A DNA stretch of 64,000 bases from Candidatus Hermodarchaeota archaeon (GCA_048885535.1 JBHLLO010000002.1:1-64000); one strand, 5' to 3'; shown: positions 28,504 to 41,260, counted from the first letter of the stretch. Numbers and translations are program-made. Notes: a model not told the origin generated them from the sequence alone.

Positions 28504-28983
28504 TTAATTTATAAAAAGATCTAAGAGATTCTTTAAATTTAAGTTTTGAATTACATTTTTCATTAATGCTTTCCCCAAAGGAGTTACAATCAATGAGCCT
28601 GAATCTTCTATTTTTCTTAAATAATCATTGTTAATTAAAAAAGCTATATCAGATTCCCACACTTCAGAAAATACCTCTTTAAGATCTTCAATCTTTAAAT
28701 TATCATCAACTTCTTTGCTCATAGCGATAATTAAAGCCAATGTTCCATATTGCGATGCTGAGATAGTGTCATCTTTTCCTTCGGATGTCAAAATGTAAAA
28801 TGTTTCGTTAAGAAATTTTGATTTAATAAACTCAAATCCAACATTTTTTAGATTATGATAGACATCACTCATTATTTTATCAAAATCGTAATTTTTACAC
28901 AAGTTTTTTAGATCATCTTCCCTAATCATTTTTTGGGGTTGTGTTAAAATCATTCTTGTAATTAACTTAACTGTATCTTCCAT
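28504..28983 (-). CDS. Tandem winged-helix protein, MAGE/Nse3 (KITE)-like
   Basis: FDKIMSDVYHNLKNVGFEF...FYIL (WH-A), GTLALIIAM...LINNDYL...IVTPLGKAL (WH-B). Confidence 0.55.
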   Translation of the reverse strand: MEDTVKLITRMILTQPQKMIREDDLKNLCKNYDFDKIMSDVYHNLKNVGFEFIKSKFLNETFYILTSEGKDDTISASQYGTLALIIAMSKEVDDNLKIEDLKEVFSEVWESDIAFLINNDYLRKIEDSGSLIVTPLGKALMKNVIQNLNLKNLLDLFIN

Positions 28984-28992
28984 AATAATATT

Positions 28993-30621
28993 TCAACTTT
29001 CTTTAATTTCGAATGTCTTTATGTTTTTAATTTCTTTTTTAATTTCGATATTTGAAATTATTAAAACCAAATTATATTTTTTTAGATTATCATTATTTTT
29101 GAATACTGGTAAAATTTTCCTGATTGCTCTTAAGATAGAGCCACCTTTATTATAGTCATTTGGAATAAATAAATTTGAAAAGATAATATAATCCTTTTCT
29201 AAAATAAGACAGAAAGATAAGTATAAACTTACAATAAAAAATACCTTTTCTGGAGTTGTAAGCTCGCTAAAAGTAATTTTATCCTTATCCTTTCTTTTAA
29301 AGAAAGTACTTACAAATAAATTACTGTTCTTATTATTAATCAAAATTTGAAATTGAATAAATAAATTAATTTTTAATAAGAAAAAATTTAATAACCTCTG
29401 AAGTTCGTCTAGGTTCACCTCAAATTTTCTGTAATTCTTTAAGCTTTCTATGAAAATTTCCATCTTTTCATCAATTCTTAAATTTTTTATTTTTTTAGAG
29501 ACTTCACTTGAGAAAAGCTCCAATTTTTTCTTTATGATTGATAAATCTTGTTCTTTCTTAATATCAATTAATTCTTCTGATTGAATCATTTCGTTTAATT
29601 CTTTATCAACTTTTTTAATGTCTTCATCGATTTGATTTAATGTCCTCAATAAGTTCACATTTGGTATTTCAGCTTCAATTAAATTCCCTTCTTCTGATTT
29701 TATTTTTTGTTTCAATTCAGATTGGATTTCATTAGCTTTTTTCTCATCCCTCTTTATAATACTTAAGAGTTTTTCATAATCATCTTTATAAATTTCGTAC
29801 TTTGGAAATAGCTCATTTAGTTTTTCAATTAGTTCTCCTTTTTTAGATTTTGCTTGTTTAATATTGTATGAGATTTCTTTTGCTTTTAATTGTAACATAC
29901 GAATTTTTTCCGAATTTCGAATAGACGTATTAATTCCTAAACTTTTCAAAACTTCATCTTTACCACTCTCAGAACCATTTTGAGTATGACGTGTAATTTG
30001 ATTAATTTGGGCGAAACACATCTTCAATTGAGAATTCAAATTTTCAATTTCTAATTCATAATTATTAATATCTTTCTTAATTAGGTTAATTTGATTTTTC
30101 TGTTGGAAATAGTCTTCCTCTAAGTACGCAGCTTTTTTCTTATTTTGTTCTAAGGAGTTATTAACTTTCTCTAATAAATCTGATATAGCTAAAAAATCAC
30201 TTGAATCTTTATATTTTTTGGCTATGTCGAATTCAGTTTTTAATGCTTCCTTCCTCACTTTTAATTCTTTTAATTCTACTATAAAAAGTAATGATTCCAA
30301 AATATCAATAAATTCGGATAGAAGTTTCAGATTCATTTTTAAAGTTTTACTTTGGTCATTTAAAATATTTATAAGCCTTGGAACTTTGTCTAAATCTTTA
30401 AATTTTTTGCTTTCTTGATAGAAAATTTTAAAAAATTTATTAAATGGAATAGAATCTAAATTCTTGCATAAATTTTCGAAGTTTTTAATTCGATATTGCT
30501 CTATTGAATCTATTCTTAATCTACCTTTAATTAAACTAAATTTGTCTCTTATATTTATTTGTTCAGAACCTATAGTAATAATAAAATTATCTCTCTGAAT
30601 TTTGAAATCACTTTTAATAAT
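28993..30621 (-). CDS. Long coiled-coil protein with degenerate SMC/Rad50-like C-terminal head (frame extends about 95 codons upstream of ATG 30336)
   Basis: Stop-free frame from 30627; about 300 aa of heptad-rich sequence; C-terminal FSELTTPEK, YIIFSN and LVLIISN lie where the ABC signature, Walker B and H-loop strands would be. Confidence 0.55.
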   Translation of the reverse strand: MIKSDFKIQRDNFIITIGSEQINIRDKFSLIKGRLRIDSIEQYRIKNFENLCKNLDSIPFNKFFKIFYQESKKFKDLDKVPRLINILNDQSKTLKMNLKLLSEFIDILESLLFIVELKELKVRKEALKTEFDIAKKYKDSSDFLAISDLLEKVNNSLEQNKKKAAYLEEDYFQQKNQINLIKKDINNYELEIENLNSQLKMCFAQINQITRHTQNGSESGKDEVLKSLGINTSIRNSEKIRMLQLKAKEISYNIKQAKSKKGELIEKLNELFPKYEIYKDDYEKLLSIIKRDEKKANEIQSELKQKIKSEEGNLIEAEIPNVNLLRTLNQIDEDIKKVDKELNEMIQSEELIDIKKEQDLSIIKKKLELFSSEVSKKIKNLRIDEKMEIFIESLKNYRKFEVNLDELQRLLNFFLLKINLFIQFQILINNKNSNLFVSTFFKRKDKDKITFSELTTPEKVFFIVSLYLSFCLILEKDYIIFSNLFIPNDYNKGGSILRAIRKILPVFKNNDNLKKYNLVLIISNIEIKKEIKNIKTFEIKES

Positions 30622-30623
30622 TT

Positions 30624-31661
30624 CTAACTATTTTCAAAATGCTTTTTATACTTTTTATATTCTTTCTCTTTTTTGCTTTTTCTTTCACGAATTAAATCTA
30701 AAGGATCTTTATTTTCATCCTCTTCTTTATATTTCTTATCATTGAAAGAATTTTCAAATTGAGATTTAAATTTCTCAATTTTTTTCGAAATATCTTCGGG
30801 TATTTCAATTTTTTTTTTGCTCTTTTGCTTAATGGAAACTTCATCTAACTTTTCTCTTTTTTTTCTACGTCTTAATCTTTCGAATTCCCCATTAGATAAA
30901 ACAAGGTAATTTTCATAAGCCTCTTGCTGTTCTTGTTGCTTTTTCTTTAATTTATCAATCTCTTCTTTTTCTATGCTTTTCTGGATTAGATCACTTTTCA
31001 TTCTTAAATCTTCAGCGGAAAGACTATTTTCCATTTCATGAATAAATTGAAAGAATGTTAAGTTTGGATCTTCCAAAAACTTTTGTTTATATTGTTCTAT
31101 TAACTGTTTGTCAGTATTTGGGGGAATTTGGTTTAAATTTTTATTAAGTTTTTTATTAATTAAGATTTTGTAAAATTTCGAGGCTTTTTTTATAGTTCTC
31201 AAAAAGATTGAATACTGATTTAATGATTCGGTTATATCTATCCATTCATTTAGCCCTACAGAAGGAATAAATGATATTTTCCCAATAATTTTGGATACGC
31301 TTTTAGTTTCTATTAGATTTACTCCGATTTTTTTTGTAATATTTTCATCGAGTTTTACGACCATTAGTTTTTGTTTAACACTTTCTTTATATTTCTTTAT
31401 TAAACTATCCTTGTAAAATTGGTGTAGATTTAAGTTTTCTTTTAAAGCCTTATTTAACTGTTCGTTTATGTTTTTTATGATTTCTAGTAATTCTTCATAC
31501 TGATTAATAATGTTATCTTTAATAAACACTTCTGTGAGAGTGGTTTTTTTTTCCATCACTTTTCTTTTAATTTCATTTAATCTATTAAGATTAATTTGAA
31601 GATCTTCAATGGGAGAGCTAAATTCCTTAATTTTTTCAAGATTAAATAATGATGGTTTCAT
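30624..31661 (-). CDS. Hypothetical coiled-coil, highly charged protein
   Basis: Long ORF inside the operon; K/E-rich C-terminal half. Confidence 0.7.
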   Translation of the reverse strand: MKPSLFNLEKIKEFSSPIEDLQINLNRLNEIKRKVMEKKTTLTEVFIKDNIINQYEELLEIIKNINEQLNKALKENLNLHQFYKDSLIKKYKESVKQKLMVVKLDENITKKIGVNLIETKSVSKIIGKISFIPSVGLNEWIDITESLNQYSIFLRTIKKASKFYKILINKKLNKNLNQIPPNTDKQLIEQYKQKFLEDPNLTFFQFIHEMENSLSAEDLRMKSDLIQKSIEKEEIDKLKKKQQEQQEAYENYLVLSNGEFERLRRRKKREKLDEVSIKQKSKKKIEIPEDISKKIEKFKSQFENSFNDKKYKEEDENKDPLDLIRERKSKKEKEYKKYKKHFENS

Positions 31662-31707
31662 GTTTTTTAGGAAATAAGATTCATTAATTACCTTTCTCTA
31701 TAGAAGA

Positions 31708-32817
31708 TTAGATTTCCGGAGGACCTTCAATTTTCATTGATTTATTTCCAGATCTATTTGTTTTTTCAGAAATTTGTTTAATATTACTTAAAATATCTTG
31801 ACGTTCAACATGAATTGCCGTACCTCCAACCAATTTTAAAGCTTGATAAAACATATCATAAGTTAGAATCTCTTTATTTATAGCCTTTAACAGGGCAACT
31901 TTAGTACCTCGTTCAATATCAGAACCTGAATATCCATGAGTTAATTTCAAGATACCATTTATTTTACTCTTTTTTTTTATTTCATCCCAGAGGGTATTAC
32001 TTTCAAATTCAGAGATTTTTTCTCCAATTTTACGCTTTAAATCTTTTTCTATGTTCTGTAATTCATCATATTCTTTATCTAAGTTCACATATATGGATTC
32101 ATCAACTCCTATTTTGGCATTTTTTATCTTTTGTAAAAATGAATCAATTATTTGCTTTCGCAAATGAAAGTCAGGAAAATCAAATTTGAGATGAAATGTG
32201 AATCTCCTCCAAATAGCGGAATCTAATTGATTTTGATGATTAGTTGCTCCAAATATAGCAAGTGGAACACCTTCGTAGTTAATTCTATCAATGACCTGTA
32301 AAAATGATATTACAGCTCTTTTTATTTCTCCTACTTCATGGATATTTGATCTTTCAGATCCAATGGCATCAATTTCGTCGAAAAATAAAATAAAAGCAGA
32401 CCTTTCTCGAGCAATTTCAGCAGCTAAATCTACAACGCGTCTTATTTGTTTAATTGTGTCTCCTAAGAGAGGAGAGACTAACCTGTCAGTTTCTACTACA
32501 CATATTGGTATGTCGAATTTTTTTGCAAATCCTCTTGTTAATGATGTTTTACCAGTACCTGGAGGTCCGTATAAAAGGACGGTTAAACTTGGATTTAATT
32601 TAGTTGCTTTTAGTTGTTCAGTAAATTCATCGTATTTTTTTAAAGCGTTGAAAAAGTCATTTAATATTTCTTTTTTTAGTTCATTACCTAAAATATCTTC
32701 AACATTTTCTTTGATATCATAAGGAAAATATACTGCACCATATTTACCTATTCTATCTTTAATAACATCATCTGTGTATGTAATCTTTTTCTCGGCTTCA
32801 TTTTTTTTATTACTAAT
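31708..32817 (-). CDS. AAA+ ATPase (about 369 aa; probable ATT start; ORF track shows only the last 151 aa)
   Basis: Uninterrupted frame containing LLYGPPGTGKT (Walker A), LFFDEIDAIG (Walker B), GATNH, LDSAIWRRF (second region of homology, Arg finger) and lid GYSGSDIE. Confidence 0.9.
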   Translation of the reverse strand: MSNKKNEAEKKITYTDDVIKDRIGKYGAVYFPYDIKENVEDILGNELKKEILNDFFNALKKYDEFTEQLKATKLNPSLTVLLYGPPGTGKTSLTRGFAKKFDIPICVVETDRLVSPLLGDTIKQIRRVVDLAAEIARERSAFILFFDEIDAIGSERSNIHEVGEIKRAVISFLQVIDRINYEGVPLAIFGATNHQNQLDSAIWRRFTFHLKFDFPDFHLRKQIIDSFLQKIKNAKIGVDESIYVNLDKEYDELQNIEKDLKRKIGEKISEFESNTLWDEIKKKSKINGILKLTHGYSGSDIERGTKVALLKAINKEILTYDMFYQALKLVGGTAIHVERQDILSNIKQISEKTNRSGNKSMKIEGPPEI

Positions 32818-32843
32818 AAAATCTCATCTCTTTTTTTTGTAAT

Positions 32844-34160
32844 TTAATTATTTTTTCTTTCTTTTTCAAATTTTTCACAATATTCTGCAATCTCAGATAT
32901 AAGGTTTTTCAGATTATCTATTTCAGCGCCCATAAAATTAAAAATTTCCTTTCTATATTGGGGTGAATCTCTGATTTTCATTTTATCTAATCCTAGATAA
33001 TTTGGAAAACAAATTAATTTCATTAAATAAGGAAGGACCTTCTCATTTGTTTGTAAATCTTTAAATATAGGATAAAAAATATTTTCATCAGACAGTTTCC
33101 ATTTTAAAATCCCCATATAAATTAGGAAAGCAAAATTCATTGAGATCCAATTAATTAATTCTTTTGATAAAAAACCACGCCTTTGGGAAGCAAAAGCCAA
33201 GTAATAGAGAAATAATGTCTCATTACTAAACTGTGGATATAATCGTAAAATTCCATCTGATTGTTTATTTTCACGTAAAAAATTATTATCAATTAATATA
33301 TTTACAAGATCTTCATTAGGGGCCAAAAAAAGATTATCTATTAAACGCAAGCCTATTCGTTCAACGATACTTTGTATTGCTTCTTCTTCAGCACTTGCAA
33401 TCGAATCAATATAAGGTAGAAAAACGTCAACTTTTAATATCATTGGAAGCTCATAATTATCTTTTTCTGGATATGCCCCAAAATTCGGATCGAGATTAAA
33501 AAGTGAAGTTATATTATTTAAAATTTGAGATACCTTAGGTGATAAGGAGGGGATTTCAAAAACATCTGTATTTTCTAATTTCTCTCTATAATAGGTGTGT
33601 GATTGTATAATATGGCGTTGACAATCAAAAAAATTTTGAGAAAATCTTAATAACTTTTCATAAATGAATTTTAAATTTGCTCCTCTTGGAAATAATCTTT
33701 CTTCGATAAATTTTACTAAATTGAATAAATATGTAATTTCTAGATTTCTTTCATCTGGATTTGTGATGTGCCTTAAAATATTTAAAGCATCTATGGATTC
33801 ATAAAGAAAATCTACAATGTAATCTTTAATATCAATTATAGGTATTTCATTTCTATATTTCATAATAAAATCCTTAATAATTTCATAAACATTTGTTCTA
33901 TACATTGCTGAGAATTCTGATAATGCTCTTACCTTCCGAATATTTCTTTTTTCTTCCTCTTGGCGAATTTTATCTAAAATTTCAGTATCTAGTAAAAGGT
34001 CTGCATCTAAATCGATAATAATTCTCCGAGTCTCTCTAAGGATTGGTCTCATATGACTAATAAAAGTCAAATACCTTGGAAGTAAATCTGTCCATTTTTC
34101 TCTTTTTCTTCCTGGTTTTACTGTTCTCGTTGATTTCTTTTTATAACTTATTCCAATCAC
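32844..34160 (-). CDS. Hypothetical protein (438 aa, mostly helical)
   Basis: Long ORF with GTG start in a tightly spaced operon; basic N-terminus. Confidence 0.75.
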   Translation of the reverse strand: MIGISYKKKSTRTVKPGRKREKWTDLLPRYLTFISHMRPILRETRRIIIDLDADLLLDTEILDKIRQEEEKRNIRKVRALSEFSAMYRTNVYEIIKDFIMKYRNEIPIIDIKDYIVDFLYESIDALNILRHITNPDERNLEITYLFNLVKFIEERLFPRGANLKFIYEKLLRFSQNFFDCQRHIIQSHTYYREKLENTDVFEIPSLSPKVSQILNNITSLFNLDPNFGAYPEKDNYELPMILKVDVFLPYIDSIASAEEEAIQSIVERIGLRLIDNLFLAPNEDLVNILIDNNFLRENKQSDGILRLYPQFSNETLFLYYLAFASQRRGFLSKELINWISMNFAFLIYMGILKWKLSDENIFYPIFKDLQTNEKVLPYLMKLICFPNYLGLDKMKIRDSPQYRKEIFNFMGAEIDNLKNLISEIAEYCEKFEKERKNN

Positions 34161-34168
34161 CTAGATTA

Positions 34169-35308
34169 TCATTCTTCTTTATATCCTACTAATATTTCAG
34201 TTAAAATATTTCCTATACTAATGAATATAGGTATTTCTACTCTAACTAATTGTCCAAGGATCCATTTATTAACATCTTTGATTAAAAATCGTATTTGATT
34301 TATTATTTTTTTATTCACTTCAGAATCTATTATTTTCGACATCCATAAGCCACCCCCTAACCTATATGCAACTATTTTAATAAGAGGAGCGAATAAGAAT
34401 TCCAATACCTGCTTCATCATCCATGACTTTGGAATTATACTCATATTCGACTCATCAAAATTTGGATCATTTAAGATAGGGCTTGTTTCATCAACTGTAA
34501 TCTTTGGTAAAAAACTTAATAGCAATATTAAAGCAAATATCGCAGAGATCCCATTAATAGTATAAGTTCCTCCAATCTTTTCTATATCATCCCGATTAAT
34601 TGCTATATTAGCTAAGAACATACAAATAAACACGTTTCTATCGAATTCTTCAGAAACATAAGCATAACCTAATTCTTCATCGATTGATAAATATTTCTCC
34701 TCTAGAATTTTAATTATATCATCAGGAAAAGTGTAAAAAGTATATATTCTTTTTTGACTAGATCTGATATCTTTTTCTACAATAAGTTCTTTTGATATTA
34801 AACCAAACATATCTATAAGTTCTTCAAGTTGCTTTTTCACATAATGTTTAGGTTTATTAGGATTTCCAAACATAGCATAGAATTGATGATCTACAATATG
34901 AAAGTCATTTCTCTTACTAAATGCTTCAACCATTCTATCTATTATTGGTCCTTGAGTTCCAGTTGCTATTGCCTTTGCTTTAGAAGTTACAAATCCATTT
35001 AACAATTCGTTAATAATGAAGTCTTGTTCATGAGTTCTTGACTTTAAAATTTTTTTAAAAGCTTCTGAAAAATTCTTTGTATTTGGAAAAAAAGTATTTT
35101 GAATCTTATCATTAATAGATTTTATAAATATCTCTCCATTATTTTTAGGAAAAATAAGTTTCATATCATTCAATCGTTGTATTAAAGCTACTTTAGCACC
35201 TGGAATGTTCTCAATATCTCTATTTTCAAGGCGCTCTATTGCATTTTCTAAACTCTTCTCAAAATCTAAAAGCAATTCTTTCCAATTTGGGTCTTGAACT
35301 TCAGACAT
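34169..35308 (-). CDS. Hypothetical protein, possible central winged helix
   Basis: HYVKKQLEELIDMFGLISKE...KRIYTFYTF resembles a wHTH recognition helix and wing. Confidence 0.65.
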   Translation of the reverse strand: MSEVQDPNWKELLLDFEKSLENAIERLENRDIENIPGAKVALIQRLNDMKLIFPKNNGEIFIKSINDKIQNTFFPNTKNFSEAFKKILKSRTHEQDFIINELLNGFVTSKAKAIATGTQGPIIDRMVEAFSKRNDFHIVDHQFYAMFGNPNKPKHYVKKQLEELIDMFGLISKELIVEKDIRSSQKRIYTFYTFPDDIIKILEEKYLSIDEELGYAYVSEEFDRNVFICMFLANIAINRDDIEKIGGTYTINGISAIFALILLLSFLPKITVDETSPILNDPNFDESNMSIIPKSWMMKQVLEFLFAPLIKIVAYRLGGGLWMSKIIDSEVNKKIINQIRFLIKDVNKWILGQLVRVEIPIFISIGNILTEILVGYKEE

Positions 35309-35329
35309 TTTTTAAATTATTTTTTAAAT

Positions 35330-36289
35330 TTAATCAATATTCCAATTCATTTCTATAGATACTTTATTTAGAGCATTTATTAGAGGTTTTATTAACTTTT
35401 TATCAAAAATGTTAGGGGAAGCCATACCTTTCTGAGTTTTCCAACCCATTTGAACACCCTCACCCATTTCTCTTTTACCAAATTTAATGAAATTAGTTAG
35501 ATCTCGAACCCACCAATAAAATCTTAACCACTTTTTGTTTGGATTATCTTTGGAATAGATAATTGCGAGAGCTTTCCATTCTCCAACTAGCCACTTTACT
35601 GTAATACCACTTATAGGCATGTAATAATTAATTGGAAAGTTACTATGAAAACTTAGGTTTAGATCTGACGGTGGTATACTAAAAATCGGTTGATTATATC
35701 CCTCTAATATCACAATTTCAGAGCAATTTTGACAAATATAATGTGATTTATTTTTCTCCATCTTATTCTGGCAATTCGGACATGTTCGATTCTCAATAAT
35801 TCGGGCTTTAATTATATCTAAATTTCTTTCTTTTTCTAATTCCTCCTTAGTTTTTTGTTTAGATTTACCATATTTTCCCCTCCAGTTCCAATTTTCATCG
35901 AAAGCATCATCGATCTTTTTTAAAGCAATGATAATATTTCTAAGGACTTCTCTATTATAAATTTTAATTAATCCAGCATGTTGATAATTTTTCCACCATG
36001 ACAATCTTATATATCTTTCTTTATATGAACTTTCACAAATTAAAACCGCCATAACGTAATTAGAAGTTTTGGAAACAACTATTCCCTTTTCACAAACTTC
36101 GAAATCTTTATTCAAACTAAGATTTTTATGAAAATATTCACCATCTTGAAACTCACCCTCCGCAATCACTTTTTTTTGTTCTTCTTCAACTTTTTCATCG
36201 GAATGCTTTAATATTTTTCTGCATTGAGGACATTGAAATATTCCAGCAACTAAAGGTTCCATATTAATATTACATGAAGGGCATTTCAA
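35330..36289 (-). CDS. Protein with two (zinc ribbon + PC4/YdbC-like) repeats
   Basis: CPSC..CPQC and CPNC..CQNC ribbons, each followed by GI..MAVL..YIRLSWW or GI..LAII..WLRFYWW and a closing helix (IIIALKKI / LINALNKV). Confidence 0.6.
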   Translation of the reverse strand: MKCPSCNINMEPLVAGIFQCPQCRKILKHSDEKVEEEQKKVIAEGEFQDGEYFHKNLSLNKDFEVCEKGIVVSKTSNYVMAVLICESSYKERYIRLSWWKNYQHAGLIKIYNREVLRNIIIALKKIDDAFDENWNWRGKYGKSKQKTKEELEKERNLDIIKARIIENRTCPNCQNKMEKNKSHYICQNCSEIVILEGYNQPIFSIPPSDLNLSFHSNFPINYYMPISGITVKWLVGEWKALAIIYSKDNPNKKWLRFYWWVRDLTNFIKFGKREMGEGVQMGWKTQKGMASPNIFDKKLIKPLINALNKVSIEMNWNID

Positions 36290-36291
36290 AA

Positions 36292-37392
36292 TTAATCATC
36301 ACTCCCTATAATGATAGCTCTCTCATAATCTAGATTTAAAAGTTTAATATCTTTTTGGGATAGTTTAGAAATTTCATTATTAATTTCAACCAATTTTTCT
36401 CGAAGAGATAATAAAGATTCTTGAATTTCGTCAACAATATTTTCCTCATTATATGAGACTTTTTCAATGAAGTTTAGATAACTATGTTTCCTACCCTTAC
36501 CAGTGTAAATTCTTTTGATATCTACTAGATTTTTCTCAATATCATTTAATTTAAAACTAAAATTTAGCAACTCAAGTAAAGTCGATTTCCATTGTAAAAA
36601 TAATTCGTTTTCTGAATCTATTTTTTCAAAATTAAATTTTTCTGGGAGTGTAATTTTATGATCTTTGAGATAGTTAAAGATTTCCATGCTTTCTTCTATT
36701 GCTTTATATATTTTAGTCAAAACGGTTTTACTATTTAATATGGGTTCGAAAATGCTTATAAGTTTAGTGGTTTTATCTTGAATTTCTTTAAATCTTTTGA
36801 AAAACCCCTCTATTGTCATTTCTATTTTTACAGCGTGATACACATTACCAAATTGATCTAAAATATAATATAAATCATCAGATAAAGCATAATCATGATC
36901 TCCGATTTCATATATTAAAGAATGGATAACATTGGTAGATTCGCATCTTACACTCTTTAATTTAGTAAGAGCTAAATTGAAATTTCTTCTTAATATCGAT
37001 TTGAATTTTTTATTTAACATTAGAAAGAGAGTATCATCTGGCACAGATATTGCATTTTTTTCAACTGTAATTGTTTCTTCCCCTAATTTTATAATGAAAT
37101 CATCTTCCTTTCTATCAAATTCTCTTAAGGTTCGAATATTTTTGAATAATCCTAAGTCAATTGCAATCTCAATAAATTCGTTTGACCAAAATTTTGTAAT
37201 ATTACTTTTATAAATGTCATCTAATATTAGTACCCTCTCATACGATTCTATACGACTTTTTTCTTTCAAATCTTTAAATAAATCATTCCTGATAACATAA
37301 AGAAACAATATGATATATCTCGTATCCAGATCGTCAAGGATTTTTTCAATTAAATTCCTATCGTGCTCTAATGATAAATCTCTATGTTCCAT
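36292..37392 (-). CDS. Hypothetical protein, wHTH-like N-half plus helical/coiled-coil C-half
   Basis: First gene of the minus-strand operon; NFNLALTKL...LIYEIGDHDYALS, then heptad-rich helices. Confidence 0.65.
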   Translation of the reverse strand: MEHRDLSLEHDRNLIEKILDDLDTRYIILFLYVIRNDLFKDLKEKSRIESYERVLILDDIYKSNITKFWSNEFIEIAIDLGLFKNIRTLREFDRKEDDFIIKLGEETITVEKNAISVPDDTLFLMLNKKFKSILRRNFNLALTKLKSVRCESTNVIHSLIYEIGDHDYALSDDLYYILDQFGNVYHAVKIEMTIEGFFKRFKEIQDKTTKLISIFEPILNSKTVLTKIYKAIEESMEIFNYLKDHKITLPEKFNFEKIDSENELFLQWKSTLLELLNFSFKLNDIEKNLVDIKRIYTGKGRKHSYLNFIEKVSYNEENIVDEIQESLLSLREKLVEINNEISKLSQKDIKLLNLDYERAIIIGSDD

Positions 37393-38174: not shown

Positions 38175-39881
38175 CTATTCTTTTAAGATTTTAGATTTGA
38201 TATTCTGGGGGATATATTTCCATATTGGTAGTTTTAAAATAAAATCATAAAACTTTTTCCGATTTAATTTATTTTTTAAAATAAAGTAACCCCAATTATA
38301 AAAAGCCAATCTATTGAAAAGGTGCATTAAATTTATACCAAATGGGTTATATTTTGAAGTTAAAAAGCTTGCAATGTAAGCACCTAACCTTTTTGTATGT
38401 GGAATGGATTCTGGATAAATCGATTCGGACAGTGGTCTATTAAATATTTCATAAATTGAAAATATTGGAATAAGTGCATCTAAAATTTTACTAACTTTGA
38501 GATCATAATTTTGACTATTAATAGAGTACATAGAGAGTTGATTTAGCTCTTTTATCGCAAAGTTAAAATAGCGTTCTTTGAAATTTAACCACATTTTTGC
38601 CATTAAATCCTTTATTTCAACTATTTCATTAAGGATCTCTTCTTCTTCAAAATCAAAGCCATATTTTTTTTCATAATATTTTAGACATAATAAAAAAATC
38701 GAATCTATTGATTCATAGTTTAATTCTTCATCATTTTTCTTGCCTTGAATTAAATACTTCATTTCTTCATTTGTTAAAGGATGTAATGTATGAGTATATA
38801 GTGGAGTTGTCCATAATAGTTTCAAAATTTTTTCCATAACGTAGATATATAGGTTAAATTTCTCAATCTCAAAAAGTTTTTTAGAAGATTCAAGTATAGC
38901 CCATTTAAATCTTTTTGATCTATTGAAAAATAATTTTAGCTTATTATATCGGCTTAATCTACTTTTTAGATTTCTTTTTTCATTTTTATAGACTATAATT
39001 TTTTCAATTAAAATTTTTTTAAATGATATGAGTTTCTTAATATATGCATAAAAATCTATGTTATAGTTCTCATTCACTTTATCATGAGGAATTAAAGGAA
39101 TATTTAATATTTTTTTAGGCGGAGTTAATTCAATACTCATAGAGTGATCTCCAATTGAATAGGAAAAGTAAATTTCTTGAAGAACTTCATCTAATGATCT
39201 AAAAGTCCCAAGATTTTTTGGATCTTTAGTAAAATATCCATGTAAAAGAGTATCTATGCCTTTATAGACGTTGTTATTATATTCTGAGATAATTATTGAC
39301 TCAAATTCCCCAGGGTGATGTCTTTTAATATTATATCTTTTGGATACTAAAAAGATTGCCTGGTTTGCTCTGTGGCATACAGTGTGACTCCATTTTAAAA
39401 TTGGTTCCAAAATTTTTCCATAAGTCAATATATATCCATAGAATTCAGGACCAAAATATATTGGAAAACCAAATCCACGAGATGTTGCAAATGTAAATTG
39501 AAAGAGGTGTCTTACTTTCTCCCCTTTTAATAATCCTGGGAATTTATAATGTAATACAAGCTTAGGATATAATGCATCACAACCTAGATTCATCCAAGCT
39601 TCGAATAAAATGAAACTATCAGGAAATTCCGACGAATCTCTATTGTAAATTAAATCACTCGTTAATGTATCTAAAGCCGATGGAAGTAAATAAAGCTTAT
39701 CTCCTTTATAATTGATAGTTTCACGTATAAAAGGTTTTATTTGATTCTTTATTTGAGCTTTTTTATAATAATAGCGATTCATTACTCTTATTAATGAAGG
39801 AATCTCTAAAATCTGCCTTTTGAGATCATGGGAAACTTTTATAGTAGAATAGCCTTGAATTTCATGTTTAGATTGCTCCAA
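38175..39881 (-). CDS. Hypothetical protein (568 aa)
   Basis: Long ORF, no motif recognised. Confidence 0.65.
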   Translation of the reverse strand: MEQSKHEIQGYSTIKVSHDLKRQILEIPSLIRVMNRYYYKKAQIKNQIKPFIRETINYKGDKLYLLPSALDTLTSDLIYNRDSSEFPDSFILFEAWMNLGCDALYPKLVLHYKFPGLLKGEKVRHLFQFTFATSRGFGFPIYFGPEFYGYILTYGKILEPILKWSHTVCHRANQAIFLVSKRYNIKRHHPGEFESIIISEYNNNVYKGIDTLLHGYFTKDPKNLGTFRSLDEVLQEIYFSYSIGDHSMSIELTPPKKILNIPLIPHDKVNENYNIDFYAYIKKLISFKKILIEKIIVYKNEKRNLKSRLSRYNKLKLFFNRSKRFKWAILESSKKLFEIEKFNLYIYVMEKILKLLWTTPLYTHTLHPLTNEEMKYLIQGKKNDEELNYESIDSIFLLCLKYYEKKYGFDFEEEEILNEIVEIKDLMAKMWLNFKERYFNFAIKELNQLSMYSINSQNYDLKVSKILDALIPIFSIYEIFNRPLSESIYPESIPHTKRLGAYIASFLTSKYNPFGINLMHLFNRLAFYNWGYFILKNKLNRKKFYDFILKLPIWKYIPQNIKSKILKE

Positions 39882-40020
39882 TTAACTCAGCTGTTAACTA
39901 GTCTTATAGTTTACTAATAATATTAAATGCTTATTTAATTATAATCTTAATTAAAATTCGAAATAAGAGATAAGAGTTAATTGTTCCTAAATGTTAAAAG
40001 ATTTTTAAGTGAAAATAAAA

Positions 40021-40485
40021 TTAACTTGGTGTTTTTCGTTTATTAAAAAGTTGTTTAAGTTCACTCATTATAGCTCCTCTCAAAGTTATTGGACTAGCAG
40101 GTCGAGCGGATCCTGGACCTCCAGGTGGACCTCCAGGGGGCGGTGGTGGACCTCCAGGGGGTGGACGAGGACTTCCTGCAGGTGTACCACTGGGTGGACC
40201 TCCAGGGGGTGGAGGAGCACTATTTGGAGCTTTTGGTGCGGATACTATAGGCGCTACGGTACCTCCAGTTGACTTATAAATAGCTATTTCGTTACTCAAT
40301 GTATTAACTTTAGTTTCTAATGTTGATAATTTTTGATGAATAGATGATAATGATTGATCTACTAAATCAGGAATTCTAAGAATCATAGACATCATTCTTT
40401 CGACAATATCTCCGAAAGCATTTAACTTTTCTTCGAGAGGAGCCTTTCTAGTTTCTTGCATGAAATTTGCGAATTCTTCTGCCAT
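40021..40485 (-). CDS. Coiled-coil + polyproline protein with a C-terminal amphipathic basic helix
   Basis: Heptads LSSIHQKLSTLETKVNTLSNEI; PPPPGG, PPPPPGG tracts; LRGAIMSELKQLFNKRK. Confidence 0.75.
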   Translation of the reverse strand: MAEEFANFMQETRKAPLEEKLNAFGDIVERMMSMILRIPDLVDQSLSSIHQKLSTLETKVNTLSNEIAIYKSTGGTVAPIVSAPKAPNSAPPPPGGPPSGTPAGSPRPPPGGPPPPPGGPPGGPGSARPASPITLRGAIMSELKQLFNKRKTPS

Positions 40486-40627
40486 TTTTTTATCTCAATT
40501 TTTATAATTAAAGAATTATACAATAATTTTTCTAATAATTATATATCTGAATTATTTAATAAATTTAAGTCCGTGTGTATTAAAACTATTTTGAGTAAAA
40601 TTATAAAAAATATTAAAAAAAAAGAAG

Positions 40628-41260
40628 TTAACTTGATTTTGATACAGAATCTTTTATAACCATCCACAATTCATCTAATTCATTTCTCACTTCTAAAAAT
40701 TGATGAATTTTTTTCAATAATACATCTCTAGCTATATCAAAGTCTCTTTGATAATCATTGAATTCTGCATCTAAAATTTTAAGTTTTTCCCCTTCAATTA
40801 GTTTATTTTTCATTTTTTCAACATTTAGAGCCTTTTTAATGACTGCATTTCTTTTATTGGCTACTTCATTTAACGCATCTGCAAATTCTATTTTTTTCTC
40901 AATAAAATATTCTTTCTTCAAAGCAAGGTTTTTAATTGCATCTATGTATTTATTATTCACTGCTATATATCCATCATTTTTACGAATGATATCTAAATAT
41001 AAATTTATCTCTTCTTCTTGAATATTTGATTTTTTCTCTCTTACTAAAGTTTGCATTTGTTTAATTACGTCTCTAAAAGTCCGATTTAACATTTCTCTTC
41101 CTAAATTTGCTTTAGTAAGATTTTCTGCATATTTTTTTTGAGCATTGATAAGATCATATTGAGCTTTTGCCAGTTTTCTTATTTGATTGACTAACTCTTT
41201 CTCTGTTCCTGCTAATTCAAGCTCATCCTCATGCGTAATAATAGGGCTCATTTTTATCAA
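40628..41260 (-). CDS. All-helical coiled-coil protein, BAR-like
   Basis: About 210 aa, no Pro after residue 6, three long predicted helices. Confidence 0.6.
   Translation of the reverse strand: MIKMSPIITHEDELELAGTEKELVNQIRKLAKAQYDLINAQKKYAENLTKANLGREMLNRTFRDVIKQMQTLVREKKSNIQEEEINLYLDIIRKNDGYIAVNNKYIDAIKNLALKKEYFIEKKIEFADALNEVANKRNAVIKKALNVEKMKNKLIEGEKLKILDAEFNDYQRDFDIARDVLLKKIHQFLEVRNELDELWMVIKDSVSKSS

Follow-up and report, generated by a model that had tools for sequence, protein, structure and literature searches.

We use sequence profiles, structure models and the comparison of Asgard genomes to study an eight-gene cluster (genes A to H, positions 28504-37392) in a 64,000-nt stretch of DNA from a Candidatus Hermodarchaeota archaeon (GCA_048885535.1 JBHLLO010000002.1:1-64000; below, the window). 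The cluster is a conserved eight-gene unit of Loki-type Asgard archaea. Profile comparisons indicate that two of its genes, G and H, derive from those for the SMC and the kite in operons in which an SMC (structural maintenance of chromosomes) protein of ~1000 amino acids (aa) is followed by a ~260-aa protein and a kite. In two Loki families, this SMC module has lost its motor and its hinge, stayed under selection and stayed linked to genes A-E, among them the gene of an AAA+ ATPase. As to function, we lean, by a modest amount, towards a complex that handles DNA, derives from SMC5/6, is inherited vertically and includes an AAA+ remodeller.

A conserved eight-gene unit

The eight open reading frames (ORFs) all lie on the minus strand, tightly packed, between flanking genes of housekeeping type, with Lsm and a CobW-type GTPase at one end and Elf1 at the opposite end. 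From first to last they are:

Gene A, 36292-37392, minus strand: first in the cluster, 366 aa, orphan
Gene B, 35330-36289, minus strand: 319 aa, internally duplicated, with two Zn ribbons
Gene C, 34169-35308, minus strand: 379 aa, orphan, paralogue of D
Gene D, 32844-34160, minus strand: 438 aa, orphan, paralogue of C, the best-conserved member of the cluster
Gene E, 31708-32827, minus strand: 371 codons from stop to stop, AAA+ ATPase of the classical clade (~370 aa)
Gene F, 30624-31661, minus strand: 345 aa, fast-evolving, with a basic tail
Gene G, 28993-30627, minus strand: 544 codons from stop to stop, SMC-like, start codon uncertain
Gene H, 28504-28983, minus strand: 159 aa, predicted tandem winged helix, kite-like

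The gaps between neighbours, in order from A to H, are 2, 21, 8, 16, 46, about -4 and 9 nt. The eight co-directional genes described in the initial annotation stand, with the reservation that E is out of frame with its ATG and that G has no canonical start before codon 98. G+C content is 0.247-0.286 in the cluster versus 0.235-0.339 across the window. E is the only one of the eight proteins to match a Pfam family over its cut-off (PF00004), and the same scan finds no nuclease or protease family among them.

Of 28 loci from the genus, 25 have the complete series A-H in unchanged order; two of the others are truncated by contig ends, and the remaining one (genome G030) carries an insertion of ~11 kb between E and F. 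Our sample outside the genus comprised 18 loci, one of which is the genus' own G030 and two of which are short fragments of genome G140, so that 16 are counted. All eight genes are present in order in 11 of these 16. Among the 11 are two closed sister-family genomes, a locus whose gene A is truncated where the contig ends, and a locus with an additional ORF separating B from C. Two further loci retain front genes, A-E and B-E respectively, together with H, and divergent ORFs of fitting size occupy the places of F and G. In genome G201 (L082) only D-H are found within 9 kb, and C, B and A are not beside D, while genome G044 holds a different form of the cluster with an ATPase-intact SMC, described below. 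Where the flanking genes have changed (loci L071, L072 and L087), the order A-H persists. Gene order across Asgard genomes, which the initial annotation had named as a check, is thus conserved both within the genus and beyond it.

A profile of D is positive in 132 of 400 Asgard genomes, distributed over the window's own family (117/134), the sister family (13/14) and a third family, f17 (1/2), with none elsewhere. Among 1.84 billion cluster representatives we find 33 relatives of D at E<=1e-3, and near-identical copies are 'hypothetical' proteins of metagenome-assembled genomes assigned to Promethearchaeota or Lokiarchaeota. In the tree of E, proteins from the usual form of the cluster follow taxonomy. 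Together, the distribution of D and the E tree support a resident, vertically inherited system, in agreement with the initial annotation, which had taken it to be resident.

Constraint differs strongly between the genes. Within the genus, identity to the window protein is 71-89% for C, D and E, 57-83% for A and B and 50-85% for H, and falls to 29-68% for F and 30-57% for G; the flanking Lsm has 76-96%. (Taken singly, orthologues of A show 57-76% and those of C 75-88%.) The median ratio of nonsynonymous to synonymous substitution rates (dN/dS) is 0.18 for A, 0.14 for B, 0.08 for C, 0.09 for D, 0.12 for E, 0.28 for F, 0.29 for G and 0.09 for H, each a median over 23-24 close pairs that are kin and hence not independent. 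These ratios mark all eight as protein genes under selection, with F and G the least constrained. Used as a query, G finds matches in 33 of 36 other genomes of the genus and in 0 of 24 from other families; it is a fast-evolving gene.

Several loci carry additional ORFs. The insertion in G030 (L019:1-9400, L084) contains ORFs of 780, 510, 485, 390 and 354 aa along with others, and A and E are longer in this genome (512 and 426 codons). In genome G191, a 472-aa ORF lies between B and C (L081:6194-7609).

SMC and kite relatives of G and H

The AlphaFold2 (AF2) model of G, built from a 28-row alignment, has a predicted local distance difference test score (pLDDT) of 83.6. It consists of strands at residues 15-35, helices at 62-420 (two of them long and antiparallel) and a C-terminal alpha/beta region at 422-541; no hinge or zinc hook is seen in the model, the tip of the arm being a short loop and a small helix (214-237). 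Searched against the PDB with Foldseek, the model has 47 matches at E<=1e-3, and every one listed is a chain of the SMC/Rad50 family: Rad50 comes first (6.1e-9), followed by Smc5/6, LmuB, JetC, cohesin, condensin and SMC heads. VIA aligns 298 residues to the Smc5/6 head region with Z 13.0 and a root-mean-square deviation of 10.5; because rows that are coiled coil only follow close behind at Z 11-12, this Z alone is weak evidence. Taken as a whole, the model gives G the predicted head-coiled coil-head architecture of SMC/Rad50 proteins.

Profile comparison also relates G to SMC proteins. The profile of G aligns with that of the ~1000-aa Asgard SMC family over 280 columns (hhalign 94.6%, E 6.8e-8), and hmmsearch relates the two at E 2.3e-9 among 321 ORFs. 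A single SMC sequence, that of G044, does not match the G profile (3.8%), and against PDB sequences the profile returns coiled-coil noise only.

What G does not share with this family are the motifs of the ATPase. No GK[ST] of a Walker A occurs in any of the 28 orthologues, the consensus at that place being FTLIxGKFKxxx. The position of the ABC signature, aligned to SGGE[KR], reads LTTPEK with T457, T458, P459 and E460 invariant, and the Walker B position, AIDEF in relatives, reads IIFSN with S484 and N485 invariant (a placement made by eye, as the hhalign alignment is gapped there). In all, 22 columns of G are invariant, head residues included, among them L32, G35, S484 and N485. G of the sister family is likewise degenerate. 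The frame is fully open in 27 of the 28 genus loci, and one has an internal stop. G, then, has none of the ATP motifs, no hinge and only some half of the arm's length, which bears out the earlier description of a degenerate, SMC-head-like coiled coil. The window's own genome also encodes a canonical SMC and ScpB on a separate contig.

The AF2 model of H (pLDDT 88.4) is a tandem winged helix. It has three Foldseek matches at E<=1e-3, all Nse1 or MAGE-G1, with ScpB, JetB and MukE next. A wide VIA search, which is independent of Foldseek, gives Nse1 at Z 9.9 with 152 residues aligned, MAGE-G1 at 9.4 and Nse3 at 9.1, and whole-length matches to JetB (Z 7.9) and ScpB (Z 7.7); rows of single-domain MarR type, at Z 8-9, cover residues 70-159 only. 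In the predicted structure, the whole-length matches of H are therefore kites only: Nse1, Nse3/MAGE, JetB and ScpB. The tandem winged-helix, KITE-like protein of the initial annotation is what we find here.

The H profile also aligns with that of the third gene of the Asgard SMC operons, which occupies the kite position (hhalign 90.4%, E 1.4e-6, 106 columns). It has no match among PDB sequences. Pfam matches in H orthologues are weak and none is over the cut-off (MksE in 1 of 27, RQC in 7 of 27), and ESM Atlas, which contains no model of H or of D, gives feature matches of H to WHD_DprA (0.83) and MAGE (0.78) that lie under the threshold for a lead. An ESCRT-II (Vps25-like) identity was considered and rejected, as its Foldseek values of 1e-2 to 2.6e-2 rank below the kites and it is absent from the best 50 VIA rows. 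The H orthologue of genome G050 (L072:13907-14647) has a C-terminal tail of many TTKKK repeats.

From these comparisons of sequence profiles, we conclude that the ancestors of G and H were the SMC and the kite, respectively, of the ~1000-aa Asgard SMC-[~260 aa]-kite operons. It is the kite H that points to an assignment of SMC5/6 type.

How are these operons distributed relative to the cluster? Other Asgard families commonly have the ~1000-aa SMC (26/31, 11/12 and 18/19 genomes, for example), and the operon there reads SMC, ~260 aa, ~205 aa (the kite position) and has no E. In the two families with the usual form of the cluster this SMC is found in only 1/134 and 2/14 genomes. Across 30 loci of this SMC family, inspected with flanks of only 1.5 kb, five have an E-like AAA+ gene directly upstream of an intact SMC (Walker A, signature and Walker B): G044 and G054, then G139 and G140 from another family, and G008 from the window's own genus.

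The clearest case is G044, a closed genome of the sister family, in which the cluster sits at the same place, by Lsm and an AN1 gene. Its order is A-like (399 aa), C (430), D (561), E (331), SMC (1057 aa), and then genes of 323, 322 and 191 aa. The motifs of this SMC are intact (GKNGSGKS, SSGQ, IDEF), the 322-aa gene has an Nse4_C match (E 1.4e-3), and a 74-aa remnant of H adjoins Lsm. G054 has a fragment of B, then A-like, C, D, E, an SMC of 1071 aa and a 325-aa gene. The A-like, C, D and E proteins of both genomes are divergent from the usual form. In G140 a D-like gene is present too, and ORFs of 608 and 151 aa lie just upstream of a C/D-like gene (L086:2753-5041). In G008, the only one of 41 own-genus genomes with this arrangement, E and the live SMC form an extra locus (L121:5070-12592) in which C or D is not detected: the E-like AAA+ gene and the live 1018-aa SMC are accompanied by four downstream ORFs of 289 (with winged helix-turn-helix (wHTH) and Csa3-like matches), 295, 198 and 381 aa. 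In the E tree, all but one of the five E proteins encoded next to a live SMC fall away from their taxonomic kin, on long branches and with weak support. PADLOC run on the live-SMC clusters returns only generic ABC/SMC models (LmuB at ~61-64 bits, mad3, AriA and JetC).

The initial annotation had suggested that an AAA+ ATPase may replace or remodel an inactive SMC ATPase. The idea of a replacement is weakened by the five loci just described: since A-E also accompany a live SMC, the AAA+ protein looks like a partner of the SMC lineage and not a late substitute for its ATPase.

Proposed function and competing explanations

Before discussing function we describe the remaining proteins. E matches PF00004 with E 2.4e-25 and 89.9 bits against a cut-off of 21.2, and its nearest solved sequences are p97/Cdc48/VAT (E 3e-34, PDB). 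Its translation contains GPPGTGKT, FFDEID, GATN and WRRF, which we take to be Walker A, Walker B, sensor 1 and the RRF arginine fingers. The AAA+ ATPase recognised earlier is confirmed, and by its motifs it is intact and classical.

B is a duplicated unit of a Zn ribbon and a ~110-aa domain rich in W, Y and R. The two Zn ribbons seen in the initial annotation are confirmed by invariant cysteines in a doubled CxxC...CxxC pattern (C3, C6, C20, C23 and C170, C173, C186, C189) and by Zn-ribbon Pfam families in 19 of 20 orthologues; the motifs SWW and LRFYWW are repeated, the protein is net basic (K+R 50, D+E 38), and against the PDB its profile finds Zn-ribbon chains only. The profiles of C and D match each other over 236 columns (hhalign 98.3%, E 1.1e-14), so the two are paralogues; neither has relatives in Pfam, with all orthologues scanned, or among PDB sequences. 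C has a hydrophobic stretch at about residues 245-274 (window 34490-34580; Kyte-Doolittle 19-residue mean 2.24), which might span a membrane or form a helix buried in the protein core, and D has a milder one at the matching position. A has no Pfam family over the cut-off.

F is conserved in its front and middle parts and ends in a low-complexity basic tail rich in K, R and E (K+R 75 versus D+E 58 over the protein). It has no Pfam match in 27 orthologues, and its profile has no similarity either to the gene in the middle of Asgard SMC operons (hhalign 0.15%) or to the Nse4_C-bearing gene of G044 (0.2%). Complex prediction of F with G and H scores 0.65, compared with 0.58 when an unrelated protein replaces G, and so speaks neither way on an interaction.

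In the mechanism we propose, all eight proteins would belong to a single complex associated with DNA. Together with H, a probable G dimer would make a passive clamp or bridge of SMC5/6 type, and the basic proteins B and F would contact nucleic acid. An AAA+ hexamer of E would carry out the sole step driven by ATP: by a pull on one of the subunits it would assemble, open or remove the clamp. C-D may act as its adaptor or loader. The role of such a system would be housekeeping-like (chromosome organisation, repair or segregation) and not that of a mobile defence island.

SMC complexes are thought to work via their own ATPase cycle. A bolder version of our proposal, which we hold to be a long shot, is an SMC clamp driven in trans, with E opening, loading or stripping it after recruitment by an Nse5/Nse6-like C-D pair, as an ancestral layer of SMC5/6 control. 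The suggestion of an ancestral AAA+ layer comes from the rare relatives in which the A-E set accompanies an SMC with an intact ATPase. For orientation, a preprint describes Nse5 and Nse6 as having an alpha-solenoid in common and as probably going back to a single ancestor (10.1101/2024.01.07.573240). If the proposal were true, a conserved SMC5/6-type complex under selection that has no ATPase of its own, but is encoded alongside a distinct AAA+ ATPase in every case, would be a natural experiment on a motor-less SMC scaffold and would bear on the external handling of SMC rings. The live- and dead-SMC versions at one locus would allow a direct comparison, and the operon comes from the Asgard order to which the closest archaeal kin of eukaryotes belong, a group that matters for the origins of Smc5/6, its kites and the Nse5/6 loader.

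Comparison with known systems shows how far the likeness to SMC5/6 goes. Archaeal SMC5/6-related operons of SMC, kleisin and kite are described for TACK and Asgard archaea in two reports (Yoshinaga & Inagaki 2021, PMC8665677; 10.1101/2024.01.07.573240). The cluster resembles these and Smc5/6 in that G is homologous to the ~1000-aa Asgard SMC family (whose identity with the published clade we do not assume), that H is homologous to the kite-position gene of the Asgard operons and has its best structural matches in Nse1 and Nse3/MAGE of eukaryotic Smc5/6 (Nse1-Nse3-Nse4), and that a relative's cluster, that of G044, has an Nse4_C-like gene. It differs in that G is of half length and without hinge, Walker A, signature motif and Walker B; in having five extra conserved genes, including the AAA+ and the paralogous pair; and in its order, F-G-H in place of SMC-[~260 aa]-kite. 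No kleisin is recognised in the window's cluster. With Smc-ScpAB, MukBEF/MksBEF and Wadjet JetABC(D) the cluster shares an SMC-shaped protein beside a kite made of two winged helices: H has whole-length matches in JetB and ScpB, and G is matched by JetC and SMC heads. In contrast to these systems, G is without ATPase motifs and no nuclease of JetD or MksG type is found. E, in turn, has its nearest solved sequences among Cdc48/p97/VAT and shares Walker A/B, sensor 1 and the RRF arginines with them and with Vps4-type proteins, but it has a single AAA domain, an N-terminal piece of ~75 aa of no known family, no MIT or double-psi-barrel domain, and different genomic partners.

Several observations weigh against an SMC5/6-derived complex with a remodeller. 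The kleisin is the part not recognised, and F is without detectable similarity to the genes in the kleisin position. Constraint on F and G is some threefold weaker than on C, D and H, and they reach only 29-43% identity within the genus; an arms race would fit such divergence as well. Nor is the cluster indivisible: there are insertions between E and F (G030) and between B and C (G191), and C, B and A are missing beside D in G201. Gene E is not in frame with its own ATG in the window's assembly. Finally, the library model that matches E best is that of an anti-phage ATPase, IetA/IteA.

This last point opens the strongest competing explanation, namely DNA surveillance or defence as in Smc5/6, Wadjet and Lamassu, with an SMC-like sensor and with the IetA-like AAA+ and the orphans as effector arm. 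We judge it unlikely, though a serious contender. E scores far better against the IetA/IteA models (203 bits and 2e-60 in PADLOC, 183 bits and 7.6e-54 in NCBIfam) than against generic AAA models (~90 bits), IetA/IteA is its top-scoring named family, and both are single-domain classical AAA+ proteins. The score nevertheless stays well under the NCBIfam equivalog cut-off for IteA (183.3 versus 510 bits), PADLOC finds no IetS among the other seven proteins, and in place of an IetS-type protease the partners of E are an SMC-like protein, a kite and orphans. The fast divergence of F and G and the behaviour of the live-SMC form speak for defence: in G044 this form replaces the usual one in situ and leaves a remnant of H behind, in one of the 41 own-genus genomes it is an extra locus, and its E proteins stand apart from their taxonomic kin, on long branches with weak support. 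Against this, the operon is near-universal, single-copy and fixed in place amid housekeeping genes in two families, and C, D and E are as conserved in the genus (71-89%) as the flanking Lsm and Elf1. No IetS, JetD, LmuA or other effector model matches any of the eight proteins, and the Pfam scan finds no nuclease or protease; the PADLOC models for Wadjet and Lamassu reach only E 0.09 (G with JetC) and E 0.006 over 70 residues (B with LmuB), with no effector. The main text of a survey of Asgard defence systems is without the words Iet, Wadjet, Lamassu and SMC (PMC13700489).

A different explanation divides the cluster in two: an AAA+ module A-E with a substrate of its own, and beside it an unrelated, degenerate SMC-kite remnant F-H. 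The insertion in G030 falls between these halves, the ~1000-aa SMC operon has no E-like neighbour in 25 of 30 loci, at least within the 1.5-kb flanks, and in the extra locus of G008 E stands with an SMC while C or D is not detected. However, the adjacency of E and an SMC recurs in both forms and in the different family f17, the order A-H is kept despite changed flanks (L071, L072, L087), and the gaps measure 2-46 nt. We find two unrelated neighbours rather improbable, still more so than defence. That F and G are decaying, functionless remnants, so that only A-E and perhaps H matter, is scarcely credible: not one ATP motif is left in G, constraint is lowest in F and G, and 6 of 28 G orthologues are without a canonical start, but G is open over its full length in 27 of 28 genus loci, its median dN/dS of 0.29 is well under 1, 22 of its columns are invariant, head residues included, and its AF2 model is confident.

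We looked for an existing description of the operon in the literature on Asgard and Loki SMC proteins, kleisins and SMC-related proteins with degenerate Walker motifs and found none in the search records and passages covered. One candidate name came from a preprint that reports a 'Prometheus' defence system common to two cultured Loki strains (bioRxiv 10.64898/2026.02.13.705702); we reject it as a name for this operon, because in PMC13700489 'Prometheus' is a single DNA2-like protein, which is unrelated.

Irregular starts and neighbouring genes

Two genes of the cluster show irregular starts in the window, and a third does so in one orthologue. In E, the ATG (32827-32825) precedes AGA and four consecutive T (32818-32821) where relatives have three, and the extra T in this run puts the long ORF out of frame with its own ATG: the frame of the ATG ends after four codons, and the long ORF begins right behind a TGA. 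Contigs from three sequencing runs match the window here, and a contig from a fourth run has one T fewer at 32818, which restores the frame, and one A fewer at 32831; the four runs belong to a single study, possibly the window's own source, and are not independent. The frameshift may be a strain polymorphism, slippage or an ATT start. In G (window 30336-30630), no ATG, GTG or TTG precedes codon 98, yet the first 97 residues are conserved, and a canonical start is absent in 6 of 28 orthologues, the window's G included. The TAG stop of F overlaps an in-frame TAG of G as TAGTTAG. Non-canonical starts or translational coupling may be involved.

One orthologue of D (L013:6882-8198) has ATA where the others have ATG. 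Beyond Elf1 (38175-41260) lie three orphan genes of 568, 154 and 210 aa without a Pfam family, which are syntenic across the genus with 48-88% identity.

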